The position numbers were made by a program, and so were the translations under genes. A DNA stretch of 64,000 nucleotides from positions 121,352 to 185,351 of the forward strand of contig CAKPHU010000001.1 of NCBI GenBank assembly GCA_934162125.1. Direction: 5' to 3'. Source of the stretch: an uncultured Bacilli bacterium (lineage in GTDB: Bacteria; Bacillota_I; Bacilli_A; RF39; UBA660). Positions 35,282 to 48,897 of the stretch are shown in pieces (the stretch's first letter is position 1; every line of letters begins with the position of its first letter). The notes under the pieces are model-generated. The model was given only the letters and a program-made list of their open reading frames with translations, made no database searches and had not been told where the DNA came from.

Positions 35282-36502
35282 TTATTTTTTTACTTTTTGT
35301 TTCATGATACCATGAGTTGTAGCTCTACGTTCCATTTTAGAAAGTAATGTTTTAGTAGAACTAATACTTTCTGGTGTAATTTCACCAGTTAGACTTAACT
35401 CTAGGGTATCATAAATAAGGGCCTCATAATTAGTTAAATTTTCTCTACCAAAAGCACGTTCTAGATGATCATCACGATTAGTAATAGCACATCTATCTAA
35501 GAAGTGACTGTATTTGGCATCAAAATCATTATATAAAGGCTCTAGTAATGGTCTATAAGCAGAGCAAGACTCTCTTTCAAAACTTGGAAATAAAGGTCCA
35601 AGTGCTTCTAAATCTTTAATAGAACGGGCTTCTGTACGTAATTCATTGATATAACGATATTGAAAAGAATGATTTCTACTAGCAAAAGCTACACCATTGG
35701 GACCTGATTCAATAGCATGTCTATTTTCATGATAGAAAATACCATTAATATCTTTGTCAATATCCGCAATTAATGGAACATAAACATAGGTATAAGTTTT
35801 GCCATCAACAATTAAACTCTTACAGCAAGCTAGTTGATTTGGTTTATATAGTGTATTTACTAAATCAGAATTTGATACTTCTAGGCCAGTTGAAGCATAA
35901 AGTTCTCTTCTAATACGTTGAGCCCAAGGATTATCTGCTACCATAGTATATTTTTGGGCTCCTTTTATATAAGATATTTCGTTAATAATATAATCAAGCT
36001 TATCTTGATCTGATGGCAAGATAATACCATGTTCTTCATAAGTCGCAATTATTTTTTCACGAAAATCATAGTAAGATTCTCTAGACTCTATTGAGACACT
36101 TTCATCTTGATATTCACTAGCCTCGGCACTAGATAAAGAAGCTATTCTAATACGAGAAATCTTCTCTTTTTCTTCATATATTTCTGTATATGATTTAGTT
36201 ATTTTACATGTTTCATAGAGAAAATCCACTATTTCATTTTCCATTCTAGCAATACTTTCATCACGTAAACGACAGTAGATAGCACTTTCTTCTAATAAAT
36301 TACTTGGAACTGGTTCATGATGTTTTTGTAAGAAAGCAATAGTTTGCCATGGTTTAGATTCAAAAATATAACCTGTTTTCTTACTACGATGAACAATATA
36401 TGGTTTATACCAGTAACCATATTCATTTACATAATGTTTTAATAGTTCTTCTCTTTTGGCTTTCAACACTTCTTTAGCATGAATAATTTCGGAAATATCC
36501 AT
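35282..36502 (-). CDS. Hypothetical 406-aa protein occupying the rpmA-obg interval, where Bacillus has spo0B
   Basis: Strong RBS (AAAGGGGGGA) placed after the rpmA terminator. No recognised motifs and no resemblance to Spo0B by eye. Confidence 0.5.
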   Translation of the reverse strand: MDISEIIHAKEVLKAKREELLKHYVNEYGYWYKPYIVHRSKKTGYIFESKPWQTIAFLQKHHEPVPSNLLEESAIYCRLRDESIARMENEIVDFLYETCKITKSYTEIYEEKEKISRIRIASLSSAEASEYQDESVSIESRESYYDFREKIIATYEEHGIILPSDQDKLDYIINEISYIKGAQKYTMVADNPWAQRIRRELYASTGLEVSNSDLVNTLYKPNQLACCKSLIVDGKTYTYVYVPLIADIDKDINGIFYHENRHAIESGPNGVAFASRNHSFQYRYINELRTEARSIKDLEALGPLFPSFERESCSAYRPLLEPLYNDFDAKYSHFLDRCAITNRDDHLERAFGRENLTNYEALIYDTLELSLTGEITPESISSTKTLLSKMERRATTHGIMKQKVKK

Positions 36503-36552: not shown

Positions 36553-36843
36553 TTATGCTTCTTTAGGATATACTGAAGCTTGTTTCTTATCTCTTCCTAA
36601 GCGTTCAAACTTAACTACTCCATCAATAGTAGAATATAAAGTATCATCACTACCGCGGCGAACGTTAGTTCCTGGAAATACTTTAGTTCCACGTTGACGA
36701 TATATAATACTACCAGCAGTGATGAATTCTCCATCAGCAGCTTTAGCTCCTAATCTACGTCCTGCAGAATCACGACCATTAGATGTTGATCCTTGCCCTT
36801 TGTGGTGAGCAAATAATTGAATATCTAATTTCAAAAATTTCAT
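36553..36843 (-). CDS. rpmA: 50S ribosomal protein L27 with an N-terminal propeptide ([16 protein letters not shown]...)
   Basis: The mature part matches L27 ([12 protein letters not shown], GxxVxxGxxIxRQRGT). The 11-aa extension is typical of Firmicutes L27 processed by Prp. Confidence 0.9.
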
Positions 36844-36854
36844 AATTCTCCTCC

Positions 36855-37157
36855 TTATTTTACTTTTACGTTATCAGGATAATTCTCTGACAACTCTTTC
36901 AATAGACTAATCATATTTTTTATTAGTGTTTGGGTAATATTATCAGCTTTAATATTTGATATTATTAAACCATTTTCACTAACTTCATAACTTAGACTAT
37001 CCTTATCAAATGATAAAATTCCATTTACTGTAGTAGTTACGATACTACTTACAGAGCTACAAACTATATCTTTTCCGTAGTCAGCATACATGGCATGACC
37101 AGTTACTTCTACTTTTTGATATAAATCTTTGTCCTTGGTTATAATTACTTTAATCAT
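36855..37157 (-). CDS. prp: Ribosomal-processing cysteine protease Prp (YsxB family)
   Basis: 100 aa encoded between rplU and rpmA. The GHA...CSSVS pattern places His and Cys as in Prp. Confidence 0.8.
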
Positions 37158-37159
37158 AA

Positions 37160-37462
37160 TTATCCATTAATTTTAGTAATTTTAATTTTTGTATAAGGTT
37201 GTCTATGTCCTTTAGTCTTACGATTAGATCTGTCTTTACTTTTGTATTTGAAAACTTTAATTTTCTTTTGTTTACCATTTTTGATTACTTCACCTTCAAC
37301 GGTAACATTAGTAAGATAAGGACTACCTATTTTACTATCAAGCATTAATACTTGATCAAATTTTACTGTGTCTCCTACTTCAGCTTCTAGCTTTTCTACG
37401 TAAATTTCTGAATTTTCTTGTACATAGTATTGCTTTCCACCAACTTTAATTACAGCGTTCAT
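37160..37462 (-). CDS. rplU: 50S ribosomal protein L21
   Basis: 100 aa; MNAVIKVGGKQYYVQE is typical of L21, and the gene is the first of the rplU-prp-rpmA operon. Confidence 0.9.
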   Translation of the reverse strand: MNAVIKVGGKQYYVQENSEIYVEKLEAEVGDTVKFDQVLMLDSKIGSPYLTNVTVEGEVIKNGKQKKIKVFKYKSKDRSNRKTKGHRQPYTKIKITKING

Positions 37463-37560
37463 TAATATATACCTCCTTCATTTTATAACTTAAGACTCGC
37501 TCGCAAGGTACAATAAATTGTTTAAAACCTTTCAAATGCGGTTTGAGCATGAGGCGTCAA
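37463..37560 (-). ncRNA. Structured 5' leader of about 100 nt upstream of rplU, a candidate L21-type ribosomal-protein autoregulatory leader
   Basis: The long leader lies between a consensus promoter and the rplU RBS and contains a hairpin (GTTTGA-cgcctcatgc-TCAAAC). L21 leaders are known in low-GC Gram-positives. No covariance model was run. Confidence 0.3.
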
Positions 37561-37614: not shown

Positions 37615-39393
37615 CTATACTAGCTCAGTCTTTAATAGTTCTTTATTTCCTGTAGAAACTGATTCTTTTGGAGTAGCATTTAAAGCTTCTAAGTATTCTG
37701 GAAGTTTAGCATCCGGAACAATAAAAGTTGGATTTGTTAAGACTTCAGATAGAGACTCACTATCTACTTCTTGTCCAGTGGCATTTAAAAGAGCTACTCG
37801 GTCCCAACGTTTAGCGGGAATGTTTAATAGATTGATGTCTTCTTCTAGATCTTTGGCATGACCTAGATTAGAAACTTTTTCTATTAATTCATTAAGACTA
37901 CTATTTGTTAAGAAACCTACATTAGTATTGCGATCAATAGCAGATAATAAATCTCTTGATTTTAGAGAGTCAATAGAAGCTTTGATAGTAGTACTATCAC
38001 CTAGTAATGTCTTTGGCGAAGAGTTTAAATATAAAGGATTTAGTCCGGCAGAAACAAAGGCATGAACATTTTTAAAGACATTGATGTAGGCACTACTTTC
38101 TGAATCGAAAACTATTGGATAAGTTGTTAGAAAACTACTATCAATAATTTTACGTTCATATAAATTTTCAAGATGACTAATAGAGTCACTTGTCGCTTTA
38201 GAAAGTATTTCTAGTATCATGTCAGAATCAGTTATTTGCATTTTTCTTAAACTGGTAAGAGAACTATTTATTTCTGATGGAGTGCTTGTTAGTGTTAATA
38301 AATAAGCAAAAGGAACTTCGATACCATGTTTAGCAAAGATACGTTCATAATCATGTTTTTTATCTTGTTCAAGAGCAGTATAAGAAGCTTCTAATGGCTC
38401 ATAGTGACGCATGTTAAGACCATAGATATATTCTAGGACTTGTTTCTTAATCTTTTCATCTTTAGCTTTAGAAACTAGAGATTCATATGAAATACATTCT
38501 CTATCTTCATCTAGGACTCTAAGATCTGCGATTAGTCCATTGTAGCTATTGATAGTCTTAGTTTTTTGACGAACTCTAGTAACATATTTTTGATTTAATG
38601 ATTGGGTTTTATTATTGATACTATCGAGAAAAGCTTTGATGTCTTTTAAATATTCAAACTTAAGTAAAGTTTCTTTAACAACTTTTCTAGCAGTACTATC
38701 AGCTTTCTTTTTTTGTTCAGGTGTCAGAAATTGTTCACTAAGAATTTCGTCCACTGCTTCCTCTGATTGTCTTTGACAGTCATCATAATATTCTTTATAA
38801 GCATGCATCTTGCTGACAAAAGCAGCAGTGCTACCTATAATATCAGAATTATTTTTAATCTCTTCTAGATCTGTTATAAGTCCTTTTTCATCAGCTTCAA
38901 GCATATGTTCTTTAATACTTATTAATTGATATAGGCAAACTAGAAAATTATAAGAATAAGATGGAGCAACGTCTAGAACATTTCCTAAACCATATGCCAT
39001 TGTTATTCTAGCATCAAGTAAAGATAAGTAAGAACGATTTTCGTCTTCTGTTTTATTTTCAAGATCAACATTAACTAAGATATCTTCATTATCTAATACA
39101 ATACCAGCCAGAGCTGTCATAACATCGCGAATTTTATTAGCTGGTATTTGTTCAAATACAGGTGTTACTCTTAAAATAGCATCTTGAACTAATCCTTCGT
39201 CTAAGTTGGTATGATACCATAAATAGATAATGCAAGCACCAGTTATATCTACATCATAGAGGCTTTCATAACTAAAGTATGGATTGTGTTTAAAATATTC
39301 AAGAGCAAACTCAACAATACTATTATCATATTCAATACTTTCTAATCTAGCAATTTCTTCTTCTATTCGGGAAATTAAAAGTTCTTTAGTCAT
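37615..39393 (-). CDS. Hypothetical 592-aa protein, second gene of a two-gene unit with the 318-aa protein
   Basis: Overlaps the upstream gene by 8 nt. No NTPase or other recognisable motifs. Confidence 0.5.
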   Translation of the reverse strand: MTKELLISRIEEEIARLESIEYDNSIVEFALEYFKHNPYFSYESLYDVDITGACIIYLWYHTNLDEGLVQDAILRVTPVFEQIPANKIRDVMTALAGIVLDNEDILVNVDLENKTEDENRSYLSLLDARITMAYGLGNVLDVAPSYSYNFLVCLYQLISIKEHMLEADEKGLITDLEEIKNNSDIIGSTAAFVSKMHAYKEYYDDCQRQSEEAVDEILSEQFLTPEQKKKADSTARKVVKETLLKFEYLKDIKAFLDSINNKTQSLNQKYVTRVRQKTKTINSYNGLIADLRVLDEDRECISYESLVSKAKDEKIKKQVLEYIYGLNMRHYEPLEASYTALEQDKKHDYERIFAKHGIEVPFAYLLTLTSTPSEINSSLTSLRKMQITDSDMILEILSKATSDSISHLENLYERKIIDSSFLTTYPIVFDSESSAYINVFKNVHAFVSAGLNPLYLNSSPKTLLGDSTTIKASIDSLKSRDLLSAIDRNTNVGFLTNSSLNELIEKVSNLGHAKDLEEDINLLNIPAKRWDRVALLNATGQEVDSESLSEVLTNPTFIVPDAKLPEYLEALNATPKESVSTGNKELLKTELV

Positions 39394-40342
39394 TTACTTT
39401 CACCTTTTCTTTCTTGCTTGATTTGTCTTTTTGACCTAGCATTCTAAAAAGTTCTTGTTCATAATCATCTTGTATTTTTAAGAAATCTTCATTTTTTATT
39501 TGTTCTTTAAGGGTAGCTTCTACTTTACGATACTGACTACATCTTAAATTTAGTAGTTCAGAATGTTCTTTATTTCTAGTTGTTTTCTTAGTAAAGGCAC
39601 TGACAATAGCATAAGTATCTTCACCTAAACGATCAAAAACAACACGAACTTTGAAGTCTTTTACTTCTCCGAAGCCTTGTGTAAAGACATTATTAGAACT
39701 TAGACGGTTAAAGTTCTTGAATGTACCGTTTTTAATAGATTCAAATAGACCTAAGAATTTATCATAATAAGTACTATCAATATGACTTAGTTCTTCTAAG
39801 GCACGTGGATAACCAGTTGAAGTTGGAACGAAGATTAAATGGTTAGTGCTTGATATTTCAGTTAAGTCTAATTCTTCTTCGGACATCAGTTCTCTAAGAA
39901 GAGAAATTTGTTGGTTGTTAGTGGCAATGTCTTCGGCAAAAACAGCTAATTCTTCACTGTCTTCAGCAAAGTTTCTAATGGTAGCGTTATTTTTTAATAG
40001 TTCGATAATTAAACGATTAATTACTAATTCATATTTAGCTGAAGACTTGTCTGGTAAAAAGACTAAAAGATCTTCTTTAGTAGCTGGTTTTGGTAAATGG
40101 GCTAATTCTAATAAATAGATGGAAATATCATCTTCAAAATCCTGGTCGGTACGATCAATTTCAGGTGTTTCTTCTAATTCAGGTTTTCTCATATAGTCAG
40201 TTGGTTCGTAATGAGCTTCTTGAAGAGAAGAAGAGGCAACTATTTCACGACGCATTTCTTTAGCAATTCTGATATTTTGTGATAAGACTTTTTGCAGTGC
40301 TTCATTATTTAGAGAAGCTGGTTCAACTTTAATAAATTCCAT
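39386..40342 (-). CDS. Hypothetical 318-aa acidic protein whose C-terminal segment resembles RelE/ParE-superfamily (Gp49/HigB-like) toxin domains
   Basis: C-terminal ...VKDFKVRVVFDRLGEDTYAIVSAFTKKTTRNKEH... fits the Gp49/RelE-like pattern (...yRvlYf..gd.ivLLhgF.KKtqk...). Strong RBS (AAAAGGGGGA) and its own consensus promoter. Confidence 0.45.
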   Translation of the reverse strand: MEFIKVEPASLNNEALQKVLSQNIRIAKEMRREIVASSSLQEAHYEPTDYMRKPELEETPEIDRTDQDFEDDISIYLLELAHLPKPATKEDLLVFLPDKSSAKYELVINRLIIELLKNNATIRNFAEDSEELAVFAEDIATNNQQISLLRELMSEEELDLTEISSTNHLIFVPTSTGYPRALEELSHIDSTYYDKFLGLFESIKNGTFKNFNRLSSNNVFTQGFGEVKDFKVRVVFDRLGEDTYAIVSAFTKKTTRNKEHSELLNLRCSQYRKVEATLKEQIKNEDFLKIQDDYEQELFRMLGQKDKSSKKEKVKVND

Positions 40343-40457: not shown

Positions 40458-42500
40458 TTAATCTCTTTTAACGTATGCTTCACCTTTAACCGGTTCATTT
40501 GATACAGTTTCAGTTACCATAGTTTCTAACTCATTTGTTTGAGCTTGTACTGGTGTGGCAGCTGGACTATAAAGAGTATCTACTGGATCAGTATATTGAA
40601 CTGCTGGCATAGTAGTTGGTGCAGGTGCTGGAGTTGAAACTGGTTCATAAGCCGGAGCTTCTATTGGAGCTGGTGCAACTGGAGTAACTGGTGTCATTTG
40701 TTCTTCTTCATAAGTATCAAACTTAATAGCAGGAATTGTTTCTGGTTCTGGCATTACCACAGCATTAAAGTTTACAGCTGGTGCTGATGCCATAGTAGGC
40801 ATTTGATATTCATCTTTCTCTTCTACTATTGGAGTTGTAACTGCTGGTGTTTCTTCAGTTAAAGACACTGGTATGTTAGCTGACTCTTTTGGTTGGAATA
40901 CTTCGTTCACAGCTTCACGTACTTCATTAACTTTTCCTTTTTCGTAAACTGTTTGAGCAGAAGTTTCAATTAGTCTCATGGCATCAGCATAAGTACTTGG
41001 AGCATAAAAATCAACATTTTCTTTTTCTTTGCCAGTGTAGAATCTAACATCTTTATATTCTTCTCCAGCATAAGATACGATATTTTCTCTTAACTGTTCT
41101 AAAACTTCTTGACGCTGTAGTTTCTCAGCTTGTAGTTGGCTTCTAGCTTTTGCGACATTCTCTTTTAGTTCAGATATAGCCTCTTCACTATGAGCTATAT
41201 CTCTTCCAACGGCACCTAAGCTTTCTTGCAGGCTTTCAGCACTACTAAAGTCTAAACCATTTTTTATACCTAGAAGAGAAGTATATTTGTTTTTATACCA
41301 GTTTATGATTTCACAACAAATCTCGTCACTAAATCTTTCTATTTGCATATTATAAATTGCAAGTTCAGATTTAACTCTAGAAGTTTTAATAATTTTTTTA
41401 GCAAGTTTATCACGACGTTCTGTAAGATCTTTTAGATGTTCATATGCAAAAGGTGTTTGAATCTTTGACTCGTGTTGTCTTATTTCTTCTAAAGTTGGAA
41501 CTCTTTTATTTCCGTTGTCATATCCAATATATTCATGGCCAACTAAGAAAGATATTTTTTCTGGAGTTAATTCTTCATATAATAAAGTGTTTTTAGCTTC
41601 TTTAAATCTTCTTTCATAATCTCTTACAACCATTTCAAGAATACTTCTATCTTCAATAGTGTGAATAAATGCATCTTTCTGTTTGTCAGTGTGTAAGGCA
41701 ACTAGATTTCTAAGATCTTCAGGTAACTGATATGGGTTTGATACAAATAATGTAGTTCGAACTGGGGACTGCAACATAAGATCTCTTTGAGCACCATAAT
41801 TAGCTACCATTCTAGCCATTTTATCGGCTTTTTCTGGATCGTTTGCGAATTGAGCTAACATCTCCGCACCTTTTGAAACATCTATACCATTAGTTAAAAT
41901 CATTTCATAATAAGCTGGGTTTCCAGTCTTTTCGGCAAGAGATCGTCTTATTTCTTCTGGAGTACGAGTTGCGATAGCATCAATTTCAAATTGAAGACTT
42001 TCTCTATCTCTAGCTATTGCTTGGAAAACATAGCCTGTTTTCTCATCATACCTATTTAATTCAGATTGGAAGTAATTTCTATCACGTAATGCTTCTCTCT
42101 TAGCTTCAGGAGTTTCGGCTGTTACACTTTTAGTAATACTTTCTCTTAATCTAGCTTCTAGAACAGTTTTAAGTTCACGAGCCTCACGCTCACGAGCAGT
42201 AATTTCATCAATACGAGGTTGGAATTCAGCTATTTTTTCTTGATTATAGGCTCCTAATTCTTCAGGTGTCATAGCTTTAATTCTAGCATAGGCAGGTAGT
42301 CCTACCATGTTATTTAGGCTATTCCATCTATCTCTAAGAAGACCTCTTTCTCTTGTAGCTTCTGCAATTATTCTTACATCTTCTTCAGTTTTCTGACGTT
42401 TGCTTTCATGTTCAGAAATTCTGTCATCTAAAGCTGTGACCTGGTCTTGAAGTTCAGCCATTTCACGTTCAAACATTGTTAAGAATTCTTCTTTAGTCAT
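40458..42500 (-). CDS. Hypothetical 680-aa protein with an Arg/Glu-rich coiled-coil N-terminal half and a Pro/Ala/Thr/Val-rich disordered C-terminal tail
   Basis: No enzymatic motifs. Composition is seen directly. Translationally coupled to an upstream 47-aa micro-ORF. Confidence 0.5.
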   Translation of the reverse strand: MTKEEFLTMFEREMAELQDQVTALDDRISEHESKRQKTEEDVRIIAEATRERGLLRDRWNSLNNMVGLPAYARIKAMTPEELGAYNQEKIAEFQPRIDEITAREREARELKTVLEARLRESITKSVTAETPEAKREALRDRNYFQSELNRYDEKTGYVFQAIARDRESLQFEIDAIATRTPEEIRRSLAEKTGNPAYYEMILTNGIDVSKGAEMLAQFANDPEKADKMARMVANYGAQRDLMLQSPVRTTLFVSNPYQLPEDLRNLVALHTDKQKDAFIHTIEDRSILEMVVRDYERRFKEAKNTLLYEELTPEKISFLVGHEYIGYDNGNKRVPTLEEIRQHESKIQTPFAYEHLKDLTERRDKLAKKIIKTSRVKSELAIYNMQIERFSDEICCEIINWYKNKYTSLLGIKNGLDFSSAESLQESLGAVGRDIAHSEEAISELKENVAKARSQLQAEKLQRQEVLEQLRENIVSYAGEEYKDVRFYTGKEKENVDFYAPSTYADAMRLIETSAQTVYEKGKVNEVREAVNEVFQPKESANIPVSLTEETPAVTTPIVEEKDEYQMPTMASAPAVNFNAVVMPEPETIPAIKFDTYEEEQMTPVTPVAPAPIEAPAYEPVSTPAPAPTTMPAVQYTDPVDTLYSPAATPVQAQTNELETMVTETVSNEPVKGEAYVKRD

Positions 42501-42727: not shown

Positions 42728-45700
42728 TTACATGACCTTACGGGAGATAGAATCAGTTATAGAATATAGGTAACAACTAACAGGTTTATTAGTAAGACTT
42801 GAAATAATACGACTATAACCATTTAATTGTTTGTCATAGGCTTCATCAAAGATATTTTTTAGTTTGTAGTCAACAATAATTAAATGAGTTCCGCAATCAA
42901 TAAGGAGATCAATAATACCATGTTCTAGAGTATTGTCTTCTTCATAAATAAATTCATATTCTTTATAGAAGGCAGCATTCTTATTTTCTTTGATTAAATC
43001 CCATTCTAAGAACTTAGTAATCTTTGGGGCAATATTAGCTGGAATATTTTCTAAAGCAGTATTAGTAAAATCTAGAGTCTCAAGACATTCATGTACTTTA
43101 GTACCATATTCCATTAGTTCTTTTTCTTCTTTCGTTATTAGATGAAGACTCTCTTTAGAAAAATGACTTTCTGTTAAAGTCTCTTTTGGAAATTCTAACT
43201 CTTCTACTTTAAGAGGAGAAATATTGGTATTTAAATCAAAAAGAGCTTTATCTTTATTTAATAAATAGTCTTTAGAGATAGTTAAATCAACCTTTGTAAC
43301 ATAAGGTAGAAGAATGGTATAGATACTTTTCATAATACTTAAGAAACTATTATATTTACTTCTTTCATAATAAGGGACTACGTCAGATACTTCTTTAGTT
43401 TCTTCTTGTTCTGGTATGACAATAATCATCTTTTCTTTAGCTCTAGTTAAGGCTACATATAAAAGTCTTATTCTTTCAGATATTTCTTCTTCACGAGTAG
43501 CTTTTTTAGTAAGAGTTTTTAAAATAGTGTCTTTATAGTAACCATTTACATAGGGAAGTAAGAGACCATATTTGTTATCGAAAAGAATTTTTTCTTTTAG
43601 TTCACTTAAGTTAAAACGGCCAAAGAAAGAAGCAAAGTAACAGATTGGAAATTCTAGACCTTTAGACTTATGAATAGTCATTATTTTACAGCTATTTTGA
43701 CTAGATTCATTGATAGAGAACTTTAAGTCAAATGAGCTCTCCTCTACTTCATCAAGATATGTAATGAAATCATAGATAGTGTTACCTTCAAGAGAATAAT
43801 TACTAATTAAATTATAAATGTATTCACATCTTGTACGGTATAGAGAAACACTACCGATGGTAATTAGTTTCTTCTCATAATCTAGACTTTCTAAAACATA
43901 AAGTAAGTACTCAGAAACAGACATAAGATCCATATTTTTAATTAGAGGAAGACATGATGTATAAATAGATGATTCTTTATAAGTATTATTTACATAGTAT
44001 TTATAGATTTCTTGATCAGGAATTTTGAATAAGAAACTACGAGCTAGGGAAATAAAACTATATTTAAATTCATTGTCATAGTTATTTTTCTTGAGACAGA
44101 TCAAGAACTTTAGAAGACTCTTAATAACTAGTAAGTCATCGGCATTAGATAGTGAAGTATCTTTTAAAATACTTAGAGGGATTTGTTCATACTCAAAGAT
44201 TTTTTTATAAAGTTCAAAGTTTTTACTTTTATCTAAGAGAATAACGATATCAGAGTATTTTAAAGGACGAAGAACTTTAGTGTTTTTATCAAAGACTTGA
44301 TAGTTATTAGCCATTTTATTTTTAATATCTTCGGCAATAATAAATATTTCTTGTTCATCTTTAGTGATATTAGTACCTACAGCAGGGGTATAAGTTAAGA
44401 CATCAAGGTTATAGTCTTGAGATGTTTTACCTTCTTCGTTATAGCTCATGTTACCAAAAACCATGCGATGAGAAGCTTTATAATCAGCGCCACCTATCGC
44501 ATCATCCATAAATAGATCGAATAATAAATTGATTGAAGATAAGACTTCTTCACGAGAACGAAAATTCTTAACTAAATCAATTTTAATGCCGGCATCAGTA
44601 TCACGATAAGAATCATATTTATTTTTAAAGATATAAGGGTTGGCGTTACGGAAACGATAAATTGATTGTTTGATGTCTCCTACCATATAGACATTGTTTC
44701 TAGATATTAGAGAAATAAGCATTTCTTGAGTATCAGAAGTATCTTGATATTCATCAACCATAATTTCTTTAAAACTGTTAGTTAGTTCTTTTCTAATGTC
44801 TTCATTTTCTTCAACGACTTTGATAGCTAAAAAAGCAATATCTGTAAAGTTAAACATCTCATGTTCAGCTTTATAAGCTGTTAGACGTTTATCTAATTTA
44901 CGTAGAAGTTCAAAGATGACAGTAGCGTTTTCTTTAGTATTTTCTATTTCCTTAATGATTTCTTCTTCATTTTCATAGATAAGAAGATCTTTTATCTCAT
45001 TAAGCAAGACAGTTAAGGTTTCTTTTAGTTCTTTACCTTCATCAGGAGTATCTTTAGGTACTGATGGGAAACGTCCTAAAAGAGAAAGCTTTAATTCATC
45101 ATAAGTCGTAGCGTTAAAGAATAGTTCTAAGTAGTCTTCTACTTTACTAGTATAGGTTCCATCAAAGTAAAGAGAAAAAGAAGTGAGTAGATCTTTAATA
45201 GAATCCTTGTAACTTAAGATTAGAGAGATGTATTCATCAACAAACTTTCTAATATTTTCAGGTGTGTAATAAGTAGAAATATAATTTTTTAAGAAAGATT
45301 CTTTATCATATTTTAAAGATATTTTTTTATAAGTATTTAGAATGTACTTTTTTAACTCTTCATCATCTTTTAGGCAGAAGTCCATAATTAACTTTTTGAA
45401 GTCTTGTTTGTATGATAAATAATTTAAATCAAATATTTCGTCTAAGATCTTTTTGGTTTCAATGTTTATAAGTACTTCATCAGTTACTTTGATGTTGTTG
45501 GTGATATTTAACTTAGTATGATATTTTTTTACGATAGCTAGAGAGAAAGCATCAAAAGTAGTAATATAGGCACCATCTATTAAGTTAGCTTCAGCTTCAA
45601 GACCAGGAGTTTTATTAATAGCACTACGAATACGTTCTTTCATTTCAGCAGCAGCAGCATTGGTAAAGGTTAAAATTAATAGTTCATTGATGTGAGTATT

Positions 45701-45835
45701 TTCTTTTAATTTACGAATAACACGTTCAGTTAGAACGGCTGTTTTACCAGATCCAGCACCTGCTGAAACAATGATGTTTTTACCCTCTTCATTAATTGCG
45801 GTTAATTGTTCAGGTGTCCAAGCCATATTATTCAC
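42728..45835 (-). CDS. addA: ATP-dependent helicase/nuclease subunit A (AddA/RexA), compact 1035-aa form
   Basis: UvrD-like Walker A (AGAGSGKTAVLTERVI) with helicase motifs. The C-terminal RecB-type nuclease motif (GIIDLLID...IIVDYK) is present. Overlaps addB by 8 nt. Confidence 0.8.
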   Translation of the reverse strand: MNNMAWTPEQLTAINEEGKNIIVSAGAGSGKTAVLTERVIRKLKENTHINELLILTFTNAAAAEMKERIRSAINKTPGLEAEANLIDGAYITTFDAFSLAIVKKYHTKLNITNNIKVTDEVLINIETKKILDEIFDLNYLSYKQDFKKLIMDFCLKDDEELKKYILNTYKKISLKYDKESFLKNYISTYYTPENIRKFVDEYISLILSYKDSIKDLLTSFSLYFDGTYTSKVEDYLELFFNATTYDELKLSLLGRFPSVPKDTPDEGKELKETLTVLLNEIKDLLIYENEEEIIKEIENTKENATVIFELLRKLDKRLTAYKAEHEMFNFTDIAFLAIKVVEENEDIRKELTNSFKEIMVDEYQDTSDTQEMLISLISRNNVYMVGDIKQSIYRFRNANPYIFKNKYDSYRDTDAGIKIDLVKNFRSREEVLSSINLLFDLFMDDAIGGADYKASHRMVFGNMSYNEEGKTSQDYNLDVLTYTPAVGTNITKDEQEIFIIAEDIKNKMANNYQVFDKNTKVLRPLKYSDIVILLDKSKNFELYKKIFEYEQIPLSILKDTSLSNADDLLVIKSLLKFLICLKKNNYDNEFKYSFISLARSFLFKIPDQEIYKYYVNNTYKESSIYTSCLPLIKNMDLMSVSEYLLYVLESLDYEKKLITIGSVSLYRTRCEYIYNLISNYSLEGNTIYDFITYLDEVEESSFDLKFSINESSQNSCKIMTIHKSKGLEFPICYFASFFGRFNLSELKEKILFDNKYGLLLPYVNGYYKDTILKTLTKKATREEEISERIRLLYVALTRAKEKMIIVIPEQEETKEVSDVVPYYERSKYNSFLSIMKSIYTILLPYVTKVDLTISKDYLLNKDKALFDLNTNISPLKVEELEFPKETLTESHFSKESLHLITKEEKELMEYGTKVHECLETLDFTNTALENIPANIAPKITKFLEWDLIKENKNAAFYKEYEFIYEEDNTLEHGIIDLLIDCGTHLIIVDYKLKNIFDEAYDKQLNGYSRIISSLTNKPVSCYLYSITDSISRKVM

Positions 45836-48152
45836 CTCCTAAGAATGATAAGTCAGTGACTTTATCTAAATATTTATAATCTTTTTCGGTCTTGTAGCAA
45901 AGGTCTTTAAAGACACAGAAACTACAAGCAGCATCTGTTCCAGCATAGATTTTAGGATTAATCTTAAAGTCAGCTTCTAGAATAGAATCCGTAGTTTTAG
46001 AAATATAATCTTTAGTATAGTTAAGTAGATTACCTAACATTTCATCATTAATTATTTTGTTTTTAGTATGATATGAGAAACCTTTTTCTTCACTATAAGC
46101 CATACTTTTAATTAGTTCACTCTTTTCATAAGTAGAATCAAAGCGACTTAGAGCAGAAATATTTTCAGTAGAATAGCCATGGAGAAGATATTGATCAGTC
46201 TTTAATTTATCAACATTCTTATCCCAGGTTGGATAGTTAAAAAGAATATTTTGATAATAGATACCAGTGAATATTGGACTTTTAATGAACTTAGAATTAT
46301 GAATTAGATATAGATAGACTGGTAATTGCATATGAAGTCCATATTTCATAGGTTCGATGTGAGTATCAATAGTACCTGTTTTGTAGTCAATAATAGAAAA
46401 ATAGGTGTCCTCTACTTTTTGATAGTACATTATTTTGTCAATTGTTCCAGTAAAGATGACAGATACTTTCTTTTGAAGGTCAACATCTAATTTCTTTTCA
46501 TGATATTCTTCGTCATAGCCTGTTAGAAGTTTTTGTTTCTTTAAGACATTTAATAATTCAACTAAGTCATTTTTAATACGAACTAGTAATAATTTTTCTT
46601 TGAAAGTTAGTTCTCTTTTAGAAAGATAGTTTTCCCATTCTTTTTCAAAAGAAAAGGAAGTATTTGTATAAAGAGATAAAATATAATGGTATAGAGATCC
46701 TACAAAAGATGGAAAACTATCAGTATAGGGTTCTAGTTTTAAAACATGACGGATATAGTATTTAAAAGCACACTCGCTATAAGCATTTAGACTGGTATAT
46801 GATAGTTTTAATGGGTATGGTAAGTTAGTAAGATATAAGTCATTATCAAGACCAGTAAAGGCATTAGAATAAGTCTTATATGGGATATGGTAAGAAGAAG
46901 CAAGTTCTTCTAAGTAAGTTGACTTTTCGTTGTATAGATTATAGAGATCTAGTTTTTCAGCTAGACGTAATTCATTATAAGTATTAGAAGCATTATAAGT
47001 ATCTGGATGAGGAGGAATTACTTCTAGAGCTAGATCGATTACTAAACTAGATTTATAGTACTTGGCAAAAGGAGTAGACAATTTATAAGATAGATATAAA
47101 TTTGGTATTTTAGATAGACAAGTAATTAGAGCTAGTTTATTTCTTTTATTTAAGTAAGAGGTAGAATACAAGTCCACTTCTTCTTTTTCTTTATCACTGA
47201 TAAAAGCAATATCTTTTTCCATCTTTGGTAGAACATCTTGATTAAAACCTACTAAGAAGACATATTCATCGGAAGAAAATGTTTCATTATATAAGTTTTT
47301 GATATTGATGGCGTTCTTTAACTTAGAAGATGAAGTATGAGTATTTTTTAATTTATCTATTAAAATAGTTTTGTATTCTTTAGTCGTACTATCAAGAGAA
47401 GAAAGATCGCCTAAGATATTCAATAATTTTTTATTAAGTTCTTTTTTAGAAGGATCTTCTAAGTCAAGAATACCATCATTTAGATAATCTTTAATTACTT
47501 TTGTACTGTAAATGGAATATTTAAAATCTAAATTAAGAGGTATTTTATAGTAAGCAAAGATCTTTTTTAAAGGATAAAAGTATTCTTCTGTTACATTAGT
47601 TAAATATATTTTATTTAGAGGAACATTCTTTTTAAGTAGATCAATTATTGATAAGGCAACATGATTTATTTCTTCTTCAATAGTTTGACATTCAACAATT
47701 GGATTAGTAATTTTTATTTTCTCATCATAGATTAAAGTAGTATTTAACATTTTTTCTTCATAAAGATCTAGAGCATAAAGATTTTCTATTTTTAAGTCTT
47801 TAGTATTTAAATATTTTTGATAAGACTTATTGTAGACTAAGAGATGGTTTTCGATTAGTTCTTTTTTTAAATCTTTTAAAAAGTTTAACTTAGGACTTTG
47901 ATAAGTTTTGTTTTCATCAATTACGTAAAGATTTTTTAAATATATTTTACAAACATCAATATTATAATGATATTTTTGCATTAGATAATAATATGATTTT
48001 TCATCATAAGAAAAATAATAAATACTTTTGTATTCTTCTTTAGTTAAGTATTTAATATCTTTTAGAGAAGTAGATTCTCTTAATAATTTATTTTTAGTTT
48101 CTGTTGGACAAATTAAGAGTGTACTTTTTATTGTTGTCATGTTTATCACCAA
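45828..48152 (-). CDS. addB: ATP-dependent helicase/nuclease subunit B (AddB/RexB), short 774-aa form
   Basis: Position upstream of and overlapping addA. The C-terminal nuclease/Fe-S-like Cys cluster (CSFCVFKDLC) is present. The N-terminal inactive-helicase region is degenerate and shortened. Confidence 0.65.
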   Translation of the reverse strand: MVINMTTIKSTLLICPTETKNKLLRESTSLKDIKYLTKEEYKSIYYFSYDEKSYYYLMQKYHYNIDVCKIYLKNLYVIDENKTYQSPKLNFLKDLKKELIENHLLVYNKSYQKYLNTKDLKIENLYALDLYEEKMLNTTLIYDEKIKITNPIVECQTIEEEINHVALSIIDLLKKNVPLNKIYLTNVTEEYFYPLKKIFAYYKIPLNLDFKYSIYSTKVIKDYLNDGILDLEDPSKKELNKKLLNILGDLSSLDSTTKEYKTILIDKLKNTHTSSSKLKNAINIKNLYNETFSSDEYVFLVGFNQDVLPKMEKDIAFISDKEKEEVDLYSTSYLNKRNKLALITCLSKIPNLYLSYKLSTPFAKYYKSSLVIDLALEVIPPHPDTYNASNTYNELRLAEKLDLYNLYNEKSTYLEELASSYHIPYKTYSNAFTGLDNDLYLTNLPYPLKLSYTSLNAYSECAFKYYIRHVLKLEPYTDSFPSFVGSLYHYILSLYTNTSFSFEKEWENYLSKRELTFKEKLLLVRIKNDLVELLNVLKKQKLLTGYDEEYHEKKLDVDLQKKVSVIFTGTIDKIMYYQKVEDTYFSIIDYKTGTIDTHIEPMKYGLHMQLPVYLYLIHNSKFIKSPIFTGIYYQNILFNYPTWDKNVDKLKTDQYLLHGYSTENISALSRFDSTYEKSELIKSMAYSEEKGFSYHTKNKIINDEMLGNLLNYTKDYISKTTDSILEADFKINPKIYAGTDAACSFCVFKDLCYKTEKDYKYLDKVTDLSFLGGE

Positions 48153-48197: not shown

Positions 48198-48407
48198 CTA
48201 CTTTGCTTCTTTTTCTTCTACTACTTTTTTTCCTTTGTAGCTGCCACAGTTAGAGCAAACTCTATGTGGTTTAATTACTTCGCCACAGCTTGGACATTTA
48301 GTCATACCAGGAAGTTCCATAGCATTATGACTTCTTCTCATTCTCTTTCTAGTTTTTGAAACTTTACGGAAAGGAACAGCAAACATTTGAATGTCTAATT
48401 TCATCAT
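48198..48407 (-). CDS. rpmF: 50S ribosomal protein L32 with a zinc ribbon, carrying a 9-10 aa N-terminal extension ([14 protein letters not shown]...) that mimics the L27 Prp-cleavage propeptide
   Basis: The mature-like part [18 protein letters not shown]...CPSCGE...CSNCG matches L32. The extension is preceded by GAGGAG at correct spacing, so it is translated. Confidence 0.85.
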
Positions 48408-48411
48408 ATTA

Positions 48412-48897
48412 TCACTCCTCTTTGTAATTTTCTAATAAATCAGTAAATGGATTATTTTCAATCTTGAAGTCTTCTTCACTAACCAATCTCCATCCATCCC
48501 CGTGAAATTTACTGAGATCTTTAACCTTAGTAAACTGTAAGGGGATCTCCAGTACAATATTTTCCCATAAAAACTGAAATATATCAAGTGTATTTTCATC
48601 TTTTTTGCAATTTTCTTCAAGAATATCATCATATTCGATAGTAAATGGATAAGAAACTGGTTCAAGAGAGATAGAATCAGCAATAATCATTTCACCTACT
48701 ATTTTAGCTTCAACGTAATCAGTATCTTCATCTAATGTGTCATCATCATGAGACATATAAACTTTACCAGTTACAGAAATGTTATTTAATTCTAGAACAG
48801 GGCTATCATGAAAATATTCTTTAGGAATAGTATATGTTCCAGTTATATCGATCTCTTCTTTAGTTCTACTATGTAAAAGACTTAAATCTATATCCAT
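48412..48897 (-). CDS. yceD: YceD/YlbN (DUF177) family protein, large-ribosomal-subunit accumulation factor
   Basis: 161 aa immediately upstream of rpmF, the conserved yceD-rpmF pair. The motifs VSYPF and VLEIPLQ match Bacillus YlbN. Confidence 0.75.

Follow-up and report, generated by a model that had tools for sequence, protein, structure and literature searches.

The ribosomal protein bL32 encoded in the 64,000-nucleotide stretch of DNA analysed here (the window) is very probably a second, so far undescribed ribosomal substrate of the cysteine protease Prp, as judged by comparative sequence analysis. In Firmicutes, Fusobacteria and their relatives Prp (MEROPS C108) removes the propeptide of bL27. 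We propose, with a probability of roughly 0.8, that a precursor of bL32 is likewise cut by Prp, between Phe9 and Ala10, to give the canonical bL32. According to this proposal, translation of bL32, in this organism and in a large clade of uncultured low-GC Bacilli (Tenericutes or Mollicutes by their NCBI labels), starts at the upstream ATG and yields a precursor of 69 residues, of which the first nine, MMKLDIQMF, would form an L27-type propeptide (hereafter the tag). Prp, produced from the rplU-prp-rpmA operon, would recognise Leu at P6, Ile at P4, Gln at P3 and Phe at P1 and would cut before Ala10, releasing a mature bL32 that begins with AVPFRK, the N-terminus that other bacteria obtain by removal of the initiator Met. 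Cleavage would take place before or during assembly of the 50S subunit. The original prediction that L32 carries an L27-type propeptide cleavable by Prp was supported by every comparative test that we ran, and it is from these comparisons that we infer Prp as the protease, F9/A10 as the bond and the timing relative to 50S assembly. The positions that had been assigned to rpmF, L27, prp, the GAGGAG sequence and the shared tag all proved right.

The rpmF gene is located on the minus strand (48198..48407) and encodes a protein of 69 residues, of which residues 10-64 match the Pfam model Ribosomal_L32p (PF01783, E = 8e-25). The four-cysteine zinc ribbon (CPSC...CSNC) and the conserved N-terminal segment AVP(F/K)R(K/R)xSK identify the product as a bL32, and it is 66% identical (35 of 53 aligned residues) to the B. 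subtilis protein, which reads AVPFRRTSK from its residue 2. AVPFR had been taken as the canonical mature N-terminus of L32. In agreement with this, position 1 of the Pfam model corresponds to Ala10, and of the 36 bL32 chains with a structure in the PDB, 33 align from Ala10 and three from residue 11 or 13, hence just after it. The nine tag codons, which encode the predicted propeptide (48381..48407, minus strand), lie outside the Pfam and PDB alignments, and none of the 36 aligned chains covers tag residues 1-9. The predicted scissile junction Phe9/Ala10 (TTT GCT, 48378..48383, minus strand) has the F/A pair at which Prp cleaves L27 (PMC9405229), and tag-less orthologues begin with ATG-GCN at the same Ala. 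Directly 5' of rpmF we find yceD (DUF177; 48412..48897, minus strand), with a match to Pfam YceD (E = 4e-5) that is under the curated cutoff. The two genes likely constitute one operon, and the order yceD-rpmF is also present in three of the related loci (L161, L164 and L232). The exact L32 protein of the window is deposited as MCI5789931.1 and occurs on 235 contigs. Public annotation of rpmF is uneven, with the 69-residue tagged form in some MAGs and a 62-residue form starting MFAVPF in others.

The tag is translated. A Shine-Dalgarno sequence, GAGGAG (48415..48420, minus strand), lies within the 3' end of yceD, 7 nt 5' of the first rpmF ATG, and the TGATAAT that separates it from this ATG (at 48407) contains the yceD stop codon. 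Translation of the extension from a properly spaced GAGGAG, as had been postulated for the window, extends to the relatives: 119 of 119 species loci with enough upstream sequence have an in-frame ATG 2-4 codons before the Leu at P6, preceded by a Shine-Dalgarno sequence 5-10 nt upstream (mode 7). If translation instead started at the internal Met (MFAVPF...), the upstream codons would be an untranslated leader and the tag an annotation artefact. Such a start is used for the 62-residue proteins of two related MAGs in NCBI (MBR6949100.1 and MDO5392981.1), and the P2 codon is indeed ATG in 63 of the 119 species. However, there is no ATG at P2 in the remaining 56; at least 47 species carry a codon that is unable to initiate (TTA, CTN, ATT or TTY), and seven carry TTG. 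Furthermore, the distance from the Shine-Dalgarno sequence would be about 28 nt for the internal codon, whereas for the upstream ATG it is 5-10 nt in each of the 119 loci, and the upstream codons are kept as amino acids while their third positions vary freely (TTA/TTG/CTN, GAT/GAC, ATT/ATC/ATA, TTT/TTC, GCN). The codons that cannot initiate, together with a Shine-Dalgarno sequence that tracks the upstream ATG, exclude a start at the internal Met, and an artefact of annotation is extremely improbable. As judged from the position of the Shine-Dalgarno sequence and from the Leu variants at P2, the 62-residue start is wrong.

Conservation of the extension in relatives that carry prp, which had been suggested as a check, was readily observed. 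The tag is present in 119 of the 120 best whole-protein homologues of L32 (72-94% identical), and in these 119 sequences P1 is always Phe, P2 is Leu (59) or Met (55), P3 is Gln (118), P4 is Ile (118), P5 is Asp (94) or Asn (24) and P6 is Leu (118). With a degenerate DNA pattern spanning the junction of tag and mature part, tagged rpmF genes were found in at least 120 GTDB species, and all 120 matches listed are L32 genes. Since P5, P3 and P1 are fixed by this pattern, conservation counts from the genome scan were set aside for these positions and the unbiased homologue and addA sets were used. The latter set was obtained with addA as an anchor, which retrieves related loci independently of the tag motif, and here the tag is present in 17 of 17 L32 genes. 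Compared to the window, these anchored genes show 11 synonymous and three non-synonymous codon changes in the tag, versus 146 and 115 in the mature part. On these codon counts the tag is under selection at the protein level.

Within the bL32 family as a whole the tag is restricted. A profile search of 1.84 billion cluster representatives returned 2,915 L32 clusters, and among the best 150 of these (clustered at 50% identity) about 12 have a Prp-like tag, while Met directly precedes the conserved Ala in 106. Among these best 150, a Prp-like tag is the only recurrent long extension. The tagged clusters include L32 proteins whose mature part is only about half identical to that of the window, for example MKLDLQLFAVPARRVSKTAKRARRTHL... 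All carriers that we found are uncultured MAGs from low-GC bacteria of the gut and rumen; their labels are Bacilli, Tenericutes, Mollicutes, Mycoplasmatota or Clostridium sp. CAG:628. We take these lineages to be largely the GTDB order RF39 and its neighbours. Six GTDB MAGs (L002, L003, L015, L036, L052 and L068) with a tagged rpmF of the low-GC Bacilli type are labelled 'uncultured Muribaculaceae' or 'Paratractidigestivibacter sp.', and probably these labels or the binning are wrong. One metagenomic representative (P0130) has a degenerate tag, MKLNITLFGALPFRR, with Thr for Gln at P3 and an extra Gly; this variant may reflect a tag in decay or one that cannot be cleaved, or else an error of sequencing.

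The edge of the tag is seen most clearly in close relatives without it, which start with MAVPF (P0305-P0314, P0299 and P0105). At DNA level two tag-less loci, L161 (GAGGAGTGAGAATATGGCAGTTCCA) and L164 (GAGGTGTTAATATGGCAGTACCA), have the same Shine-Dalgarno sequence and ATG, followed directly by GCA GTN CCA; a tagged relative, L006, reads GGAGTGAAAATATGTTAGACTTAAACATTCAATTATTTGCAGTACCA for comparison. Because the same Shine-Dalgarno sequence and ATG are followed by the Ala codon (GCN) in the tag-less relatives, the tag is a discrete module with its edge at the predicted cut site. It measures nine residues and sits at the extreme N-terminus, whereas the 106 of 150 cluster representatives mentioned above start with Met and the core. 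An N-terminal Ala would thus be reached by two routes, by removal of Met in tag-less L32 and by F/A cleavage in tagged L32. The absence of the tag from some close relatives also indicates that it is dispensable. In the tag-less locus L161 (4307-5850) rpmF is followed by a gene for a Peptidase_U4 (SpoIIGA-type) and a sigma-factor gene, so that this lineage looks spore-forming, unlike what is expected for reduced genomes of the RF39 type.

The protease and its known substrate are encoded in the same window, 11 kb from rpmF. The operon consists of rplU (bL21; 37160..37462; Pfam PF00829), prp (36855..37157; Peptidase_Prp, PF04327, E = 6e-25) and rpmA (bL27 precursor of 96 residues; 36553..36843), all on the minus strand, and is preceded 5' by an L21 leader RNA (37483..37553, minus strand; Rfam RF00559, 39.1 bits versus a gathering score of 36). 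As had been recognised, this L27 has the classic Firmicutes propeptide: the Pfam model (PF01016) covers residues 12-90, and the 11 codons before it (36811..36843, minus strand) fit the published L27 cleavage motif and are conserved in 120 of 120 homologues. The window Prp, aligned to S. aureus Prp (4PEO/7KLD), retains the conserved GHA...G.D.VC pattern, its His21, Gly28, Asp30 and Cys33 corresponding to His22, Gly29, Asp31 and Cys34 of SaPrp, and hence has the catalytic His/Cys dyad (GHA...DIVC). The expected co-occurrence of the L32 extension with prp was found as well. Prp, L27 and tagged L32 are together on one contig in 14 metagenome loci and on adjacent contigs in the MAG JAZQNW01, and prp is the neighbour of rpmA in the window as well as in the 21 examined loci of relatives that include this region. 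On these data the L32 tag is confined to genomes in which Prp and a tagged L27 are present too. The DNA between rpmF and the rpmA operon includes addA (UvrD-type helicase, 1035 aa) and addB (PD-(D/E)XK nuclease, 774 aa; both within 42728-48152, minus strand), and the order rpmF-addB-addA ... rplU-prp-rpmA is kept in relatives with 57-69% AddA identity. Four minus-strand ORFs without a Pfam match at E <= 1e-4 (35282-36502, 37615-39393, 39386-40342 and 40458-42500, encoding 406, 592, 318 and 680 residues) flank rplU-prp-rpmA, three of them between the operon and addA.

The L32 tag and the L27 propeptide share the residues that Prp reads. The published L27 motif is MLxx(D/N)LQ(F/L)F'A(S/H)KK, and in the complex of SaPrp with a peptide structural roles were described for Phe at P1, Gln at P3 and the hydrophobic residues at P4 and P6 (PMC9405229). 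Taken as xx(D/N)(L/I)Q(F/L)F'A, the motif is fitted by KLDIQMF'A at all positions but P2, where Met or Leu (55 and 59 of 119) falls slightly outside F/L. The L27 homologues of the clade (n = 120) have Phe at P1 (120), Leu at P2 (118), Gln at P3 (119), Ile at P4 (119), Asp, Asn or Glu at P5 and Leu at P6 (120), and the L27 and L32 tags of the clade thus have Leu at P6, Ile at P4, Gln at P3, Phe at P1 and Ala at P1' in common. Ile at P4 was considered as a shared derived state specific for this clade, but this is weakened by L27 of Fusobacterium animalis, LFNIQLFAHKK, which also has Ile at P4 (PMC12341114). On the other side of the junction, known Prp substrates have small residues at P1'-P2' (PMC9405229). 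P1' of L32 is Ala and P2' is Val, which is larger than Ser or Ala and smaller than the His of the clade's own L27.

The original prediction saw the two tags as alike at protein and at DNA level. Both likenesses are real. The window contains exactly two matches to the 24-nt stretch AAATTAGAYATTCAANNNTTTGCT, at 36808-36831 and at 48378-48401, whereas 100 shuffles gave none, and the rpmA and rpmF copies are identical at 20 of 24 bases. Nonetheless, the DNA identity is not independent evidence and adds nothing beyond the peptide, because it reflects the same peptide written in the same AT-rich codon usage (the GC content of the window is 31%). A recent gene conversion between rpmA and rpmF was rejected on the same ground, since the 20 of 24 identities are predicted by the shared peptide and AT-rich codons. 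In six-frame translations of 0.93 Mb (the window and 120 related loci) the peptide motif was found 121 times in L32, once in L27 and in two short spurious ORFs. No residue co-variation between the L27 and L32 tags within a genome was seen in 14 same-contig pairs and JAZQNW01, in which P2, P5 and P7 vary independently; KLDIQMF of L32 is for instance paired with KLNIQLF of L27 (L139 and L141) or with KLEIQFF (JAZQNW01). This absence of co-variation neither supports nor contradicts a shared protease. In lineages with Leu at P4 of the L32 tag (the CAG:628 type, L036), L27 was not found within about 7 kb of rpmF.

These determinants also bear on the identity of the enzyme. The tag might be removed by a protease other than Prp, such as an Ntn hydrolase resembling Rrp or a general endo- or aminopeptidase, and a precedent exists in Rrp of S. 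pneumoniae TIGR4, which processes L27 without Prp and has a looser specificity (bioRxiv 10.64898/2026.08.10.744006). However, a change of Phe to Ala at P1 blocks Prp and not Rrp (bioRxiv 10.64898/2026.08.10.744006), and strict conservation of Phe at P1 and of Gln at P3 is characteristic of the specificity of Prp. Together with the constant neighbourhood of prp and rpmA, this makes removal by another enzyme very improbable, and Prp the preferred candidate.

Tags of the same kind are also found on phage proteins. A scan of IMG/VR for KL(D/N)IQxFA returned 62 contigs. In nearly all of these a phage ORF carries the motif N-terminally, and in 39 a Shine-Dalgarno sequence is present together with a start codon no more than four codons away. 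The PHROGs names of the tagged ORFs comprise tape-measure, head scaffolding, major head, major tail and tail proteins, which suggests that phages of low-GC hosts process a whole set of virion proteins with the host Prp. Examples among these loci (L168-L229) are ORFs on L170 (6648-8174, plus strand) and L169 (12258-13700, plus strand) and minus-strand ORFs on L182 and L187. Ala at P1' in all 62 contigs is fixed by the search pattern. P2' is variable (D, S, A, E, T, G, H, V, R, M, I, F or N), and Pro occurs at P3' (FAAP, FARP, FATP). On phage proteins P2' and P3' vary, Val and Pro being among the residues seen there, so that Val-Pro behind the cut would probably not be exceptional for a tagged protein. 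By analogy to the capsid (gp47) and scaffold (gp46) of phage 80alpha, which are cleaved by the host Prp (PMC9405229), the tag appears to work on unrelated protein bodies.

It could still be argued that the nine residues are translated and never removed, so that they form a lineage-specific extension of bL32 on the ribosome, with a likeness to L27 that goes back to common origin or chance. Cleavage of L32 is deduced rather than observed, some L32 lineages have short additions at the N-terminus (1-4 residues: MAIVP, MGAIAP, MPPQP), and Val-Pro at P2'/P3' of L32 is unlike the His/Ser-Lys of L27. Against this stands that conservation falls on just those positions that determine recognition by Prp (P6, P4, P3, P1 and P1') and not on an arbitrary subset. 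The extension ends precisely at the Ala that is free in 106 of 150 cluster representatives and from which 33 of the 36 solved chains align, the whole module is lost exactly in close relatives, leaving M-AVPF, and the same tag is carried by phage proteins with unrelated bodies. Permanent retention of the tag is therefore improbable, and the proposed removal by Prp is the better account of this pattern.

Why bL32 should carry a cleavable tag can be seen in two ways. The tag may be adaptive and provide a second Prp-gated step in 50S assembly, or it may be nearly neutral, being portable, harmless as long as Prp is abundant and kept cleavable by selection. Its repeated presence and absence among close relatives leans towards a nearly neutral passenger. 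In S. aureus, an uncleavable L27 tag blocks tRNA binding and no functional ribosome is obtained (PMC9405229), and selection for a cleavable tag would thus be strong. A more far-reaching reading, which we regard as doubtful, is that a portable tag was captured by a second core ribosomal protein, that 50S assembly is gated by Prp at bL32 and bL27, and that this is convergent with the maturation of mitochondrial bL32m. The two gates would then be located at bL32 beside uL22, before uL2 binding, and at bL27 in the peptidyl-transferase centre. In assembly intermediates of E. coli, bL32 is positioned beside uL22 and both precede the binding of uL2 (PMC11723945); this position and this requirement were all that we found in the literature concerning the presumed burial of the bL32 N-terminus in 23S rRNA. 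Should the portable-module reading hold, large-subunit assembly would have a natural checkpoint in the exposure of the bL32 N-terminus, and the cellular substrates of Prp would vary with the lineage.

Prp is under study as a target for narrow-spectrum antibiotics, with L27 regarded as the one essential substrate that it has in the cell. If L32 is indeed processed, the tag can be transferred between core cellular proteins and not only to phage proteins, and the tagged L32 proteins constitute a natural test set for which residues Prp accepts beyond the cut (Val-Pro at P2'/P3'). Genome annotation would have to be corrected, as NCBI holds 69- and 62-residue starts for the same gene and the propeptide is marked in neither. 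A tag on L32 would surprise specialists of ribosome assembly and of Prp, although its mechanism is taken over from L27 and only uncultured organisms are seen to carry it.

In the literature that we could search, no description of L32/bL32 as a Prp substrate was found. L32 is unmentioned in the 2026 preprint of the Dokland lab (bioRxiv 10.64898/2026.08.10.744006), and "L32" is absent from their 2025 preprint by full-text search. As a probable second ribosomal substrate of Prp, L32 is apparently undescribed, in line with the original prediction. However, substrates other than L27 have precedents: cleavage of phage capsid and scaffold was shown and FlhB was proposed (PMC9405229), and in the literature covered we found no further ones.

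The closest known system is the L27/Prp pair itself. Compared to the L27 of S. aureus (MLKLNLQFF'ASKKG), the L32 tag has the same length of nine residues and the same register, with Leu at P6, a hydrophobic residue at P4, Gln at P3, Phe at P1 and Ala at P1'; prp is likewise present in the carrier genome, and removal of the tag would expose the N-terminus of tag-less orthologues. Differences are that the carrier is bL32 instead of bL27 and that Ser/His-Lys at P2'/P3' of L27 is replaced by Val-Pro. The L27 tag is fixed across phyla, whereas the L32 tag is limited to one clade and was gained or lost repeatedly, and cleavage of L27 by Prp is known while that of L32 is predicted from sequence. In phage 80alpha, phage proteins exploit the host enzyme; here the tag is on a second core ribosomal protein of the cell. 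For FlhB of B. subtilis and of other bacteria with flagella, the proposal that Prp acts on the N-terminus comes from bioinformatics only (PMC9405229). Like L32, FlhB is a cellular protein other than L27 with an N-terminus that resembles the L27 cleavage motif, but it is a membrane export-gate protein and not ribosomal, and L32 is absent from that FlhB analysis.

Functionally, a protease-dependent maturation of bL32 would have its nearest parallel in mitochondria. The mitochondrial bL32m (MrpL32) belongs to the same family and is likewise made as a precursor with an N-terminal extension, which the m-AAA protease takes off before the ribosome is assembled (PMC5438985, summarising Nolden 2005; Bonn 2011), and there removal before incorporation into the large subunit is obligatory. 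However, the protease is unrelated, an ATP-dependent AAA metalloprotease, and the presequence has 71 residues compared to nine in the bacterial tag. The cut in MrpL32 is set by the folded zinc domain and not by a sequence motif, while the bacterial tag is a motif of a cysteine-protease system, and the mitochondrial presequence is tied to organelle import, which has no counterpart in the bacterial tag. Thus, the bacterial tag is not of the m-AAA type, and its likeness to MrpL32 is functional only, an analogy and not a homology.
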